From Candidatus Latescibacterota bacterium (lineage in GTDB: Bacteria; Latescibacterota; UBA2968; UBA8231): a DNA stretch of 64,000 nucleotides. The notes below the pieces were generated by a model. That model was not told the origin of the DNA, ran no database searches, and saw only the letters and a program-made list of their open reading frames with translations. The position numbers and the translations under genes were made by a program. Of the stretch, positions 21,137-24,305 are shown piece after piece (the stretch's first letter is position 1; every line of letters starts with the position of its first letter). The DNA lies in contig CBDCSU010000004.1 in the NCBI GenBank assembly GCA_965221775.1, positions 160,001 to 224,000 of the forward strand. Direction: 5' to 3'.

Positions 21137-21879
21137 TCTCCGGCACCCGCGTCATCGACGCCCACGGCCACGTGGGCCACTGGGAGGTCCTCGGCATGCG
21201 CGACGACGCCGGCGAGATCCTGCGGACCATGGACCGCGCCGGTATCGACGTGGCCGTGGTCTTCGGCATCTTCCACCCCGAGGGCCGCAGGTCCAACGAC
21301 GCGGCCGCCGCCTTCGTGGCCGCTCACCCCGACCGCTTCGCCGCCCTGGCCTACGCCTCTCCGCTGATGCCGGACGGCATGGTGTCCGAGTTGCGCCGCG
21401 CCATCGACGACCTCGGCTTTCTGGGGGTGAAGATCTATCCGCCGTACACGCCTTGGCCCCTCGACCACGAGGCCTGGGACCCGATCTACGCCTTCGTCGA
21501 GGAGCGCGGTCTGCCGCTGCTGTCCCACACCGACGCCGGGGACGTCTCCCGGCCGGCCCAGCTGGCGGCGGCAGCCCGGCGCTTCCCCGGGGCCGCCTTC
21601 ATCGCCGGCCACTCCGGCAACATGGAGCCGGCCCGCTCGGAGGCGATCCAGGCCGCCCGGGAGCTGCCCAACTTCTATCTGGAGACCTGCTCCACCTACC
21701 GCACCCCCGGCGTCATCGAGGAACTGGTGGCCGGCGCCGGCGCCGACCGGGTGCTCTTCGGGTCCGACCAGCCGCTGATGGACCCGCGCCCCCAGCTGGG
21801 CAAGATCACCGCCGACCTGAGCGACGAGGAGAAGCGCCTCGTCCTCGGCGGCAACGCCGCACGTCTCCTGGGTCTGTAA
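21133..21879 (+). CDS. Amidohydrolase_2 family protein
   Basis: IDAHGH, GVKIYP, LSHT, IAGHSG, VLFGSD and GGNAARL. Confidence 0.88.
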   Translation: MISGTRVIDAHGHVGHWEVLGMRDDAGEILRTMDRAGIDVAVVFGIFHPEGRRSNDAAAAFVAAHPDRFAALAYASPLMPDGMVSELRRAIDDLGFLGVKIYPPYTPWPLDHEAWDPIYAFVEERGLPLLSHTDAGDVSRPAQLAAAARRFPGAAFIAGHSGNMEPARSEAIQAARELPNFYLETCSTYRTPGVIEELVAGAGADRVLFGSDQPLMDPRPQLGKITADLSDEEKRLVLGGNAARLLGL

Positions 21880-21882
21880 CCC

Positions 21883-22782
21883 GTGGCCGAGCCCCTGACC
21901 CTGCTCAGCATCGGCGCCCACCCGGCCGACATCTTCGACCAGTCGGGCGGCACCATGGCCCACCACGTGGAGCGCGGCGACCGCGTCGCCTGCGCCGTCC
22001 TCACCCACGGGGCCCGCGTCCACGACGCCGAGATCAGCGACGCCATGTTCCACCGGGAACAGGTGCCGGAGGCCGGGGAGCTGAGCGACCTGATGGCGGA
22101 GCGCGCCGAGGTGAAGGCGGGGGAGGTCCGGCGCGCCTGCGCCTTCCTCGGCGTGGAGGAGATCCACTTCCTCGGCTTCGACGACGCCGTGCTCGAGGCC
22201 ACCGAGGAGATCGTGCGCCGCGTGGCGAGCCTGCTGCGCCAGGTCCGCCCGCACGTCGTCCTGACCCACTTCCCGTACGAGGGCGACGCCGTCAACGCCC
22301 ACGCCGTCACCGGCCGCATCTGCCTGCTGGCCCTCGGGCTGGCCGGCAGCGTCGATCCCGGCGACCGCAACCCGCCGCACAAGACGGCCCAGGTCTTCTT
22401 CTTCGGTACGGGGGCGGCGCCCCTGCCGCGGAATGTGTGGGGCGCCCGGGGCGGTTTCTACAACGACGTCTTCATCGACATCGGCGACGTGGTGGAGAAG
22501 AAGCTGGCCGCCCTCGACGCCCTGGTCAGCCAGGGCTACGGCGGAGCCTACGCCCGCAAGCGCATCGAGACCTCGGACGGCGCCTTCGGCAACGCCGCCC
22601 ACTGCAGCTACGCCGAGGGCTTTATCAAGATGAACGCCGAGTGCCACCACTACCTGCCGGTGACGGACCGGGCCCTCGAGCTGGCGGGGTTGAGCGACCA
22701 TCAGGTGATCCCCCGGGCCTCCCTGCGGCACCGATCGGGTCCCCCCGGGGCCGAGCCCGAAGGCCCGGATCGTACGGCTTGA
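21883..22782 (+). CDS. PIG-L/LmbE family deacetylase
   Basis: IGAHPAD, GGTMA, LTHG, VRPHVVLTH, FIDI.DVVEKK..AL and YAEGF. Confidence 0.8.
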   Translation: MAEPLTLLSIGAHPADIFDQSGGTMAHHVERGDRVACAVLTHGARVHDAEISDAMFHREQVPEAGELSDLMAERAEVKAGEVRRACAFLGVEEIHFLGFDDAVLEATEEIVRRVASLLRQVRPHVVLTHFPYEGDAVNAHAVTGRICLLALGLAGSVDPGDRNPPHKTAQVFFFGTGAAPLPRNVWGARGGFYNDVFIDIGDVVEKKLAALDALVSQGYGGAYARKRIETSDGAFGNAAHCSYAEGFIKMNAECHHYLPVTDRALELAGLSDHQVIPRASLRHRSGPPGAEPEGPDRTA

Positions 22783-22807
22783 CATCGGGCGCGCCCCGGC
22801 GTAAGGT
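22779..22807 (+). promoter_or_regulatory. Near-consensus sigma70 promoter
   Basis: TTGACA (22779-22784), 17-nt spacer, TAAGGT (22802-22807). Confidence 0.7.
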
Positions 22808-22813
22808 ACAGAC

Positions 22814-22974
22814 ATCCCCACGGCCGGCTCCTCCGGGATCCGGCCAAAACCGGAGCGACGGTAGGCCGCCTCGTACCGGCGTTCCGGAAAAGTCGAGCGG
22901 TCCTCTGCTTTCTCCTACGCTCGACTCTGTTTCTCCATAGACAGGGGGCCCTCGGGCCTCCTGTCTATTTTCTT
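22814..22974 (+). ncRNA. Putative small regulatory RNA (three hairpins plus terminator), family unknown
   Basis: Lies between the promoter and an intrinsic terminator. Stems at 22822-22845 (C-UCCG-G loop), 22850-22887 and 22891-22926 are separated by A-runs; no plausible ORF. Confidence 0.65.
22937..22974 (+). terminator. Intrinsic terminator
   Basis: ATAGACAGGGGGCC-CTCG-GGCCTCCTGTCTAT 14-bp stem followed by TTTCTT. Confidence 0.8.
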
Positions 22975-23010
22975 GCGCCCCTGACGGACTCCTCCTCGAG
23001 CCCCCGGCCC

Positions 23011-24273
23011 ATGCCCCTCGCCCCCGAAGCCGCCGCCGCCCTCGACCGGCGGCTGGCCCTGGTCGACGCCGCCGAGCCCCGGATCCGGGCCCTGGTCCCG
23101 GAGCAGGACCGCCGCCTGCGCCTCGCCGCCGAGTTGGAGGCCGCGCCCGAGGGCCCCCTGCGGCACCTGCTGGTGGGCGTGAAGGACATCTTCCACGCGC
23201 GGGGACTGCTCACCCGGGCAGGTACCGAGTTGCCGGGAGGCCTCTTCGCCGCGGAGGGCGCGGAGGAGGCCGACGCCGACTGCGTCGCCGCCCTGCGGGC
23301 GGCGGGAGCGGTGGTCCTCGGCAAGGCGGTGACCACCGAGTTCGCCTACTTCGAGCCCGGGCCGACGCGCAACCCGCGAGACCCCGCCCACACCCCCGGC
23401 GGTTCCTCCAGCGGCTCGGCGGCGGCGGTGGCGGCCGGGTACTGCGAGCTGGCCCTGGGGTCGCAGACGGTGGGCTCGGTCATGCGGCCGGCCGCGTTCT
23501 GCGGCGTCGTCGGGTTCAAGCCGACCTTCGGGCGCGTCTCCCGGGGCGGTCTGCTGCCCTGCTCCCCCTCGGTGGACACGGTGGGACTATTCGCCCCGGA
23601 TACGGCTACCGCGGCCCGGGGGGCGGCGGTCATCGTCGATGCGTGGGGTCCCGCCGCCGCCGAGGGCCACTGGGAGTCGCCCCGGCCCGTCCTCGGGATC
23701 CCGGAGGGGCCGTACCTGCGCCAGGCCTCGCCCGAGGGACTGGCGGGGTTCGAGGAGCAGGCGGCGAGGCTGGAGTCCGCGGGCTTCCGGGTGAAGCGGC
23801 TGGAGGTCCTGACCGACATCGACGAGGTCAACCAGCGCCACCGCGACCTGCACGCGGCGGAGATGGCCCTCGTGCACGCCCCATGGATGGAGGAGCACCT
23901 CGATTTCTACAAGCCGCTGACCCGCCAGTTCCTGCTGCGCGGCCGGGCGATCCCCGAGGCGCGGCTCCTGGCCGGCAGGGAGGGGCGCGGCCTCCTGCGG
24001 CTCCAGTTGGAGCAGGCCATGGCGGCCGAAGGCGTCGACCTCTGGATCTGTCCGTCGGCGCCGGGACCGGCCCCCCGCGGCCTGCACGCCACGGGGGATC
24101 CCATCATGAACCTGCCCTGGACCCACGCCGGCCAGCCGGCCCTGAGCCTGCCGGCGGGGCTCGTGGGCCGGCTGCCCCTGGGGCTGCAGTGCGTCGCCGC
24201 CCACGGCCGCGACGAGGCCCTCCTGGCATGGGGCGCCGCCCTCGAGGCGGCCCTCGGTTCCGGCGGCGACTGA
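23011..24273 (+). CDS. Amidase signature family protein
   Basis: GVKD, GKAVTTEFA, TPGGSSSGSAAAVA and GSQTVGSVMRPAAFCG. Confidence 0.92.
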   Translation: MPLAPEAAAALDRRLALVDAAEPRIRALVPEQDRRLRLAAELEAAPEGPLRHLLVGVKDIFHARGLLTRAGTELPGGLFAAEGAEEADADCVAALRAAGAVVLGKAVTTEFAYFEPGPTRNPRDPAHTPGGSSSGSAAAVAAGYCELALGSQTVGSVMRPAAFCGVVGFKPTFGRVSRGGLLPCSPSVDTVGLFAPDTATAARGAAVIVDAWGPAAAEGHWESPRPVLGIPEGPYLRQASPEGLAGFEEQAARLESAGFRVKRLEVLTDIDEVNQRHRDLHAAEMALVHAPWMEEHLDFYKPLTRQFLLRGRAIPEARLLAGREGRGLLRLQLEQAMAAEGVDLWICPSAPGPAPRGLHATGDPIMNLPWTHAGQPALSLPAGLVGRLPLGLQCVAAHGRDEALLAWGAALEAALGSGGD

Positions 24274-24276
24274 ACG

Positions 24277-24305
24277 TCGACCGCCCCGGGCGGCGGTCCT
24301 ATATT
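24277..24305 (+). promoter_or_regulatory. Putative promoter of the PhyH-uxuA-PhyH genes
   Basis: TCGACC-17 nt-TATATT. Confidence 0.4.

Follow-up and report, generated by a model that had tools for sequence, protein, structure and literature searches.

A structured RNA gene between a PIG-L gene and an amidase gene

We analysed a 64,000-nt stretch of DNA (the window) from Candidatus Latescibacterota bacterium, contig CBDCSU010000004.1:160,001-224,000 (G000:C4:160001-224000 in our own labels, G000 being the genome); all coordinates without a locus label are positions in this window. Between an open reading frame (ORF) of the PIG-L family (21883-22782, + strand) and an amidase ORF (23011-24273, + strand) lies a real, previously uncatalogued small RNA (sRNA) gene of about 160 bases, which belongs to one family of uncultured marine bacteria. 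An earlier look at the letters of the window (the original prediction) had proposed a self-contained, structured sRNA of about 160 nt at this site. The elements it named, namely a promoter, three hairpins, a loop, a linker, a 14-bp terminator and two UUUCUCC words, are all in place, and the RNA has a conserved structure with compensatory changes as well as a promoter and a terminator of its own. The parts of the gene are as follows.

22779-22784, + strand: −35 box TTGACA, invariant in 12 of 12 aligned homologues and TTGACA or TTGACT in distant ones
22802-22807, + strand: −10 box TAAGGT, after a 17-nt spacer from the −35 box
22812-22975, + strand: predicted sRNA transcript of about 162-164 nt, placed by promoter geometry, fold and covariance-model match
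22813-22821, + strand: single-stranded 5′ motif CAUCCCCAC, a candidate seed, invariant in groups g1, g6 and g8
22822-22845, + strand: hairpin 1, whose UCCG tetraloop has a closing C-G pair; its sequence varies among relatives
22850-22887, + strand: hairpin 2, with apical loop GGCCGCCUCG (22864-22873), the best conserved part, core CGCCUC
22891-22926, + strand: hairpin 3, a 9-bp stem with an 18-nt loop GUCCUCUGCUUUCUCCUA (22900-22917) that contains CCUC and UUUCUCC
22927-22936, + strand: single-stranded linker CUGUUUCUCC, with the second UUUCUCC; relatives retain its (U)CUCC(C) core
22937-22975, + strand: intrinsic terminator, a 14-bp stem (22937-22968, eight G-C pairs) with a 4-nt CUCG loop and a UUUUCUU tail (TTTTCTT in the DNA)

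A covariance model of the family, described below, matches the window copy at 22810-22974 with 167.7 bits; the transcript start, predicted at 22811-22814, and the transcript ends are read from sequence features. No ORF starts inside the sRNA; the long ORFs that run into it have their starts well away from it, and one of these (21453-22940) crosses the Pfam-supported PIG-L gene in another frame. The two UUUCUCC copies occupy 22909-22915 and 22930-22936. As a word, TTTCTCC is not unusual here, with six occurrences in the whole window, a number reached by 12 of 100 shuffles.

A consensus promoter scan made no call on the sRNA promoter, because TAAGGT agrees with TATAAT at just three of six positions. 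We nevertheless consider the promoter assignment supported, because both hexamers and their spacing are conserved in relatives: the −10 box appears there as TAACGT, TAAAGT, TAGGAT, TAGGGT, TACCGT or TACGGT, always 17 nt from the −35 box, and its variation among 12 aligned sequences is confined to positions 3-5. The −35 hexamer takes in the stop codon of the PIG-L ORF (TGA, 22780-22782), so that a coding gene holds part of the promoter in its last bases. At the other end, the T-run of the terminator is longer (7-8 T) in lower-GC relatives and short in the high-GC subgroup. The 36-nt spacer from the U-tail to the amidase ATG (22976-23010) has no obvious Shine-Dalgarno (SD) sequence and holds a further CUCCUCCUC word at 22989-22997; in the related genome G006, AUCCUCCC occurs twice at the equivalent position. 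Read-through transcripts may carry an additional anti-SD-like motif from the spacer. Just past the amidase stop codon, within 24277-24305, the scan picked out a hairpin resembling a terminator (24279-24298) and, overlapping with it, the promoter-like site TCGACC-17-TATATT.

The fold is conserved through compensatory changes

The + strand of the RNA folds with a minimum free energy of −85.4 kcal/mol (z = −7.39), and 0 of 200 shuffled sequences folded equally well; the fold exceeds chance expectation. The − strand gave z = −2.98. We assigned the gene to the + strand because the z-score of the fold favours it, many G-U pairs are kept, and the promoter and terminator agree with it.

In A2, a plain MAFFT alignment of 12 sequences, RNAalifold recovered four helices that match the single-sequence fold, with 43 pairs, 16 of them changed on both sides. 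Paired cells made up 99.0% of A2, against a shuffle mean of 93.4% (0 of 500 shuffles reached the observed value) and against 35-51% when the partners were slid by 1-3 columns; the 16 compensatory pairs stand against 0-4 in the slid controls. Compensatory changes are present in all four helices, several pairs in each, including 5 of 9 pairs in hairpin 1, 3 of 8 in hairpin 3 and 5 of 12 in the terminator. An alignment of 18 distinct sequences gave 34 of 43 pairs as compensatory and 97.2% of cells as paired, figures that lean toward structure because this alignment was fitted to the model, and that do not count independent events because the sequences are related. Collecting homologues and checking them for covariation, as the original prediction had suggested, thus revealed a conserved structure with compensatory changes in relatives.

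The single-stranded parts are conserved as well. Predicted unpaired probabilities are 0.95 for the 5′ segment (22812-22821), 0.79 for the hairpin-2 loop, 0.99 for the hairpin-3 loop and 0.93 for the linker. Across the 18 distinct homologues, mean conservation was 0.88 in the hairpin-2 loop and 0.81 at the 5′ end, compared with 0.77 in paired columns; the hairpin-2 loop has the consensus GG-nCGCCUCG, and UCUCC in the hairpin-3 loop and UnUCC in the linker are likewise retained. The earlier placement of UUUCUCC in unpaired regions therefore holds, with CU-rich motifs that are unpaired with probabilities of 0.79-0.99 and that rank among the best-conserved positions.

The copy in genome G009 (L025:1501-1635, − strand; 135 nt, 120 bits) wholly lacks hairpin 3. 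It retains the 5′ motif, the first two hairpins, a linker reading CUCCC and the terminator. The gap is either an assembly artefact or a sign that hairpin 3 can be dispensed with.

The RNA is found in one family, among changing neighbours

The sRNA is single-copy in the G000 genome. By blastn, 12 of 41 related genomes carry it, G000 included, and a covariance model built from this set (R1) matched 18 of the 76 genomes of family f1; the order-level set consisted of the same 76 genomes. A second model (R2), built from 19 matches, found the RNA in 20 of 132 genomes of the class and in 19 of 151 genomes of a phylum-wide sample. After inspection of alignments, we counted 19 credible carriers in eight genera, all in family f1 (19 of its 76 genomes): G000-G009, G010, G014, G016, G020, G023, G045-G047 and G091. 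The match in G023 (45.2 bits) is by its alignment a true, diverged homologue, and G087 (30.7 bits) is doubtful and was excluded from the count. Matches of 25-35 bits to R1 or R2 (L031-L034 and L050-L052) proved to be false positives, each consisting of a tRNA T-arm, which mimics hairpin 3, and a terminator; a cut-off near 40-45 bits is therefore advisable for searches with either model. A match on contig C6 of the G000 genome (19 bits, E 0.029) was noise.

R2 found no homologue in 87 genomes from 13 other families of the phylum, nor was the sRNA found in 31 genomes of genus g14 or in the other genera searched. In each genome the searches scored some tens of the thousands of first-look candidates, so diverged copies could escape. 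Twelve public metagenome-assembled genomes (MAGs) that contain the sRNA are labelled Candidatus Latescibacterota bacterium (six), Gemmatimonadaceae (three), Gemmatimonadetes (two) and bacterium (one); labels of Latescibacterota and Gemmatimonadetes indicate that the host is not an alphaproteobacterium.

Sequence upstream of the −35 box and downstream of the T-run cannot be aligned between subgroups. The distant genera g22, g2 and g12 share a layout of TTGACW, 17 nt, TAGGAT, TAGGGT or TACCGT, 5 nt and C(A)AUCCCCA, and thus retain the 5′ motif CAUCCCCAC 5 nt past the −10 box. At their loci L026, L028, L029 and L030, the −35 box lies 56-105 nt ahead of the start of the covariance-model match, with the 5′ CAUCCCCA motif kept right past the −10 box. 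The RNAs of these genera thus have an extra 5′ insertion or hairpin, outside the coverage of R1 and R2.

The genes on either side change across the family, as listed here with strands relative to the sRNA. No Pfam families were found in the flanks of the two g6 genomes.

Downstream, + strand: amidase in G000 and G006 (by Pfam), with a comparable ORF, not checked against Pfam, in the same place in G007 and G002
Downstream, + strand: sulfatase in G001 and G003
Downstream, + strand: GFO/IDH/MocA oxidoreductase in G005 and G008
Downstream, − strand: GFO/IDH/MocA oxidoreductase in G016
Downstream, − strand: PhyH in G009 and G010
Downstream, + strand: zinc alcohol dehydrogenase (Zn-ADH) in G046, G047, G020 and G023
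Upstream: PIG-L in G000
Upstream: GNAT in G001, G005, G009 and G016
Upstream, − strand: epimerase in G046 and G023
Upstream, − strand: DsbA-like in G047
Upstream, − strand: beta-lactamase in G010
Upstream: AP_endonuc_2 in G020

Because the promoter and loops are conserved where the flanking genes differ, we read the locus as a stand-alone sRNA gene and not as a leader of the amidase gene.

The RNA resembles known regulators without belonging to their families

A scan of the whole window against Rfam at gathering level returned no family, in agreement with the original prediction, which had not recognised a known RNA. A permissive scan of 22600-23200 (E ≤ 10) gave five sub-threshold matches, the best of them, and the only one of note, RF02344 (ar14) at 33.8 bits against a gathering threshold of 58.8 (E 1.4e-4; 22845-22972, + strand). 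The other four, asX1 (20.6 bits), Xoo1 (20.4), P24 (14.6) and CsrC (10.7, on the opposite strand), were also below threshold, and membership was rejected for each. On nine homologous loci ar14 gave no match at E ≤ 1; the two families that did appear there, mmgR (24 bits) and LOOT (26 bits), were far below threshold. The alphaproteobacterial sRNA mmgR/suhB (RF00519, gathering threshold 41) scored 24.1 and 23.8 bits on L026 and L022 and did not match the window copy at E ≤ 10; we treated these matches as chance or convergent likeness. A Csr/Rsm-type sequestering RNA was also rejected, since the loops are CU-rich without the GGA design and the genome has no CsrA match.

The likeness to ar14 deserves comment. 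As described in excerpts of PMC4615179 and PMC10746234, alpha-r14 or cuckoo RNAs consist of two to four adjacent hairpins, each with CCUCCUCCC in its loop. The first of these excerpts reports 321 cuckoo RNAs from homology searches, all in 78 alphaproteobacteria and often multi-copy (PMC4615179); the second reports that NfeR1 has three hairpins with CCUCCUCCC in unpaired regions, and that its three motifs redundantly occlude ribosome-binding sites independently of Hfq (PMC10746234). Compared with these accounts, the window RNA likewise has adjacent hairpins followed by a terminator, and anti-SD-like pyrimidine motifs in several unpaired regions. Unlike those of ar14, its motifs differ among themselves and hairpin 1 carries none, the loops being UCCG, GGCCGCCUCG and GUCCUCUGCUUUCUCCUA; it is also single-copy, and its family occurs in MAGs labelled Latescibacterota or Gemmatimonadetes, in contrast to the alphaproteobacterial cuckoo RNAs of the excerpt. 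We rejected ar14/cuckoo membership on the sub-threshold score and on an exact count of the defining CCUCCUCCC motif, which is present in 0 of 19 homologues. A search of the window for CCTCCTCCC with two mismatches was uninformative (619 matches, 576 expected). We read the likeness to ar14 as convergence, a functional resemblance on present evidence.

Two other regulators offer parallels. The excerpted description of sX13 from Xanthomonas gives it a 5′ region without structure and three stem-loops, whose C-rich loops pair with G-rich motifs near start codons independently of Hfq (PMC3771888). The window RNA appears similar in its unstructured 5′ end, three stem-loops, C/U-rich loop motifs and G+C-rich host. 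It differs in coming from another phylum and in having no sequence or Rfam relationship to sX13, which is absent among the five matches at E ≤ 10; where the loops reported for sX13 are CCCC or UCCCCCU, those of the window RNA have CCUC or CUCC, with CCCC at the 5′ end only. RoxS (RoxS/RsaE), as far as an excerpt of PMC8216469 describes it, directs several C-rich single-stranded regions against mRNAs and ribosome-binding sites, and RosA, a separate stand-alone sRNA of Firmicutes with G-rich regions and transcription-factor control, sponges RoxS. The sRNA is not a member of the NfeR1, sX13 or RoxS families. It does share two features of the trans-acting anti-SD class of sRNAs, having its own promoter and intrinsic terminator irrespective of its neighbours and conserved, accessible pyrimidine motifs complementary to SD or G-rich sequences.

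RNA-library contigs cover the locus

Five metatranscriptome runs from two studies, labelled as marine or sponge metagenomes, each contained a small share of a 601-nt query, and four of the five were mapped as assembled contigs on 22300-23500.

Run X1: 167-nt contig on 22831-22997, one mismatch, depth 11.9
Run X3: 162-nt contig on 22795-22956, two mismatches, depth 2.8
Run X4: 108-nt contig, of which 88 nt lie on 22828-22915 with no mismatch (the other 20 nt do not fit), depth 12.6
Run X2: no contig on the sRNA; 345-nt contig on 22392-22736, over the PIG-L gene, five mismatches, depth 3.5

All four runs had zero cover in the bins 22751-22791 and 23079-23160, uncovered parts that are not evidence of absence, and pieces at 23300-23500 came from other organisms and matched the conserved amidase domain over short lengths. 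We take the contigs on the sRNA, from three of four runs in two studies, as a weak hint of expression.

A companion RNA precedes the gene in relatives

Carriers outside the high-GC g1 subgroup all have a second conserved sRNA gene, directly upstream of the −35 box of the sRNA. These companion loci, all outside the window, include L016:1699-1790 (−), L026:1714-1807 (−), L029:1328-1408 (+) and nine others. Of the 14 relatives that have the companion, 13 carry it right next to the sRNA, upstream and on one contig with it (the G003 copy being cut by the start of its contig), and G008 has it on another contig end. A covariance model of the companion (R3) matched 16 of 76 genomes, two of these, in g14, being doubtful (41 and 33 bits); it found no companion in G000 or in the four other high-GC genomes of the genus, G002, G004, G006 and G007, and an nhmmer search of the G000 genome was likewise empty.

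The predicted companion transcript is 79-107 nt long (about 90) and has a conserved GUCAC...GGUGC motif, a promoter of CTTGAC, 17 nt and TAGTAT, and a terminator hairpin with the loop C[CAG]GAGGCGA, in which the GAGGCGA part is invariant. Just upstream of the companion −35 box, about 45-70 nt before the companion start, are an A-tract AAAAAACA and a palindrome (A)TCTAGRSCTAGA(T) (for example within L016:1687-2022, −); the promoter of the window sRNA has nothing comparable. By its sequence, the palindrome looks like a transcription-factor operator.

GAGGCG in the companion loop and the invariant CGCCUC in hairpin 2 are exactly complementary. Between the two loops, 6-7 contiguous Watson-Crick pairs, worth about −12 to −14 kcal/mol, were obtained in 10 of 10 genomes computed, and the complement was also seen by eye in the remaining two. 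Composition-preserving shuffles of the companion loop reached the observed match in 14-127 of 2000 trials; the match was noticed post hoc, and because both loops are invariant and share their ancestry it counts as a single observation. The companion may be a sponge of the sRNA, in a pair like RosA and RoxS: as with RosA in the excerpt cited above, there is a separate RNA with a G-rich loop, here GAGGCG, and a palindrome-bearing promoter. No homology connects the two systems, and the companion is absent from G000. In the present case the two genes stand in tandem. Moreover, the hairpin-2 loop is invariant also where the companion is missing, so sponge pairing cannot be the sole role of this loop.

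These observations suggest a scenario that we offer tentatively and consider unlikely as a whole. In it, an ancestral two-gene module would have comprised a CU-rich anti-SD regulator with a plain sigma-70-like promoter and, upstream, a sponge of about 90 nt under transcription-factor control through TCTAGRSCTAGA. The GAGGCGA loop of the sponge would mimic an SD sequence, kiss CGCCUC and thereby switch the regulon, and in the high-GC subclade the sponge would have disappeared and the regulator would have changed its locus.

Anti-Shine-Dalgarno pairing as the proposed mechanism

We propose, with a probability of roughly 60%, that the gene encodes a stand-alone, trans-acting sRNA that acts by Hfq-independent anti-SD base-pairing through redundant CU-rich seeds; by analogy with the regulators above, this is the best explanation. 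Transcription would initiate near 22812 from the sigma-70-type promoter TTGACA-17-TAAGGT and stop near 22975 at the strong intrinsic terminator. Four stretches rich in pyrimidines would be exposed in the resulting RNA, namely CAUCCCCAC at the 5′ end, GGCCGCCUCG in the hairpin-2 loop, CCUCUGCUUUCUCC in the hairpin-3 loop and UUUCUCC in the linker; all four have a CCUC, CUCC or CCCC core complementary to SD or G-rich sequences. These redundant seeds would pair, free of Hfq, with the translation-initiation regions of several mRNAs, block binding of the 30S subunit and so repress translation.

The 16S rRNA of the host ends in ...CACCUCCUUUCU / ...GGAUCACCUCCUUUCU, so the CCUC, CUCC and CUUUCU motifs of the sRNA look like the anti-SD tail of the ribosome itself. 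The word complementary to UUUCUCC, GGAGAAA, is rare, with 300 sites in a genome of 70% G+C, and it occurs in 13 crudely called start regions where 1.7 are expected. No genes for Hfq, CsrA or ProQ were detected in this 96.8%-complete genome; named control genomes that carry them were matched.

We found 24 GGAGAAA sites that adjoin starts and checked 15 against Pfam. At least one, in an aldehyde dehydrogenase, is an internal start, and L084 (BNR) may be another; the best sites with correct N-termini precede HpaB, TauD, a PhyH protein, an epimerase, a gamma-glutamyltranspeptidase and an MR_MLE enzyme. The two best-looking candidates are those of HpaB (GGGAGAAAGC-N2-AUG) and TauD (GGAGAAAGG-N1-AUG).

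We also noticed that in G000 the hairpin-3 loop has a complement in the pre-16S trailer, AAGGAGAAAG, directly past the 16S 3′ end: on contig C6 the 16S 3′ end (L098) is followed by UCUAAGGAGAAAGG, a 9-nt complement of CUUUCUCCU in that loop. The trailer is near-identical in G006 (UCUAAGGAGAAAAGG) and the complement is absent in the carriers G023 and G045, and we set this pairing aside as coincidence.

Several observations weigh against anti-SD pairing. Any CU-rich RNA complements SD sequences, which makes complementarity weak evidence alone, and a crude ORF finder of our own supplied the gene starts. We found no conserved mRNA target. RNAduplex, with which four segments of the sRNA were tried on some 20,000 candidate starts, returned GC-rich noise only, and the complements of the 5′ motif and the hairpin-2 loop were not enriched at starts and gave no convincing start-site matches. 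HpaB and TauD were rejected as conserved targets: in the carriers used for this comparison (G006, G001, G014, G016 and G045; HpaB in all five, TauD in the four that were readable), the orthologues keep a generic SD only, without the extended complementarity. The RNA-library contigs carry no strand or end information, and they overshoot the predicted start by 17 nt and the U-tail by 22 nt, so DNA carry-over or read-through is possible. Thus, of the novel base-pairing sRNA put forward in the original prediction, the novel sRNA is supported, with no Rfam family at its gathering threshold and with covariation in relatives, and base-pairing is the best-supported candidate mechanism.

Alternative explanations

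The failure to find a conserved mRNA target would be expected if the RNA did not work by base-pairing and instead titrated a protein, with its loops, above all the hairpin-2 apex GACGRUAGSCCGCCUCGURYCG, binding an RNA-binding protein or the ribosome. Conservation of this apex, stem and loop alike, goes well past the needs of pairing, and repeated similar motifs recall titrating RNAs. Yet genes for CsrA, Hfq and ProQ went undetected, the motifs are CU-rich where Csr/Rsm RNAs have GGA, and the variable flanking genes link no candidate binding protein to the locus; we consider protein titration unlikely. The RNA could also have the companion sRNA as its main partner, loop to loop through GAGGCG and CGCCUC, with either acting as sponge or antagonist and G000 retaining one half of the pair. 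The companion has its own promoter and terminator and adjoins the sRNA in 13 genomes, the contiguous complement of 6-7 nt joins two invariant loops, and RosA sponging RoxS provides a precedent, as excerpted from PMC8216469. We nevertheless judge this decidedly unlikely, since the hairpin-2 loop is invariant in the five genomes where no companion was found, and since two invariant loops with one shared ancestor offer no covariation beyond a match seen post hoc.

The original prediction had named an attenuator of the amidase gene as its alternative, and a cis-acting leader, with its terminator read through under some condition, has points in its favour. The amidase start is just 36 nt past the U-tail, with no promoter called between them by the consensus scan; the tail is short (UUUUCUU) in the high-GC subgroup; one RNA-library contig extends 22 nt beyond it; and the amidase or a comparable ORF recurs downstream in three related genomes (G006 by Pfam; G007 and G002 not checked against Pfam). 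Across the family, however, the downstream gene changes among five gene families and is turned the other way in G009, G010 and G016, the 14-bp terminator is G+C-rich with no alternative anti-terminator in the consensus fold, and the Rfam scans matched no riboswitch or leader family, all of which makes a leader very unlikely. That the region is non-functional, a chance G+C-rich palindromic intergenic sequence or a repeat element, is hardly credible: high-GC genomes do fold well by chance, as the z-score of the − strand recalls, yet the element is single-copy, is conserved across eight genera as its flanks diverge, keeps its promoter and terminator, and shows compensatory changes in all four helices when set against slid and shuffled controls.

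Significance

Taken as a catalogue entry, this is a well-supported new sRNA family, without an Rfam entry, in an uncultured lineage seen in metatranscriptomes with marine or sponge labels. A new sRNA family of a familiar functional type is in itself an ordinary discovery. If anti-SD pairing is correct, a known design, in which a hairpin scaffold presents redundant C/U-rich anti-SD seeds that act free of Hfq, would extend to a further phylum, which would argue for a convergent origin. A full-text literature search for sRNAs of this phylum (Gemmatimonadetes, small RNA) found no relevant paper. The two-gene module, if true, would consist of a regulator and a sponge that are genetically linked, and would be the first sRNA circuit that we found described for this phylum in this limited search. 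The covariance models, together with the linked companion RNA, provide a handle on post-transcriptional control in bacteria known only from MAGs.

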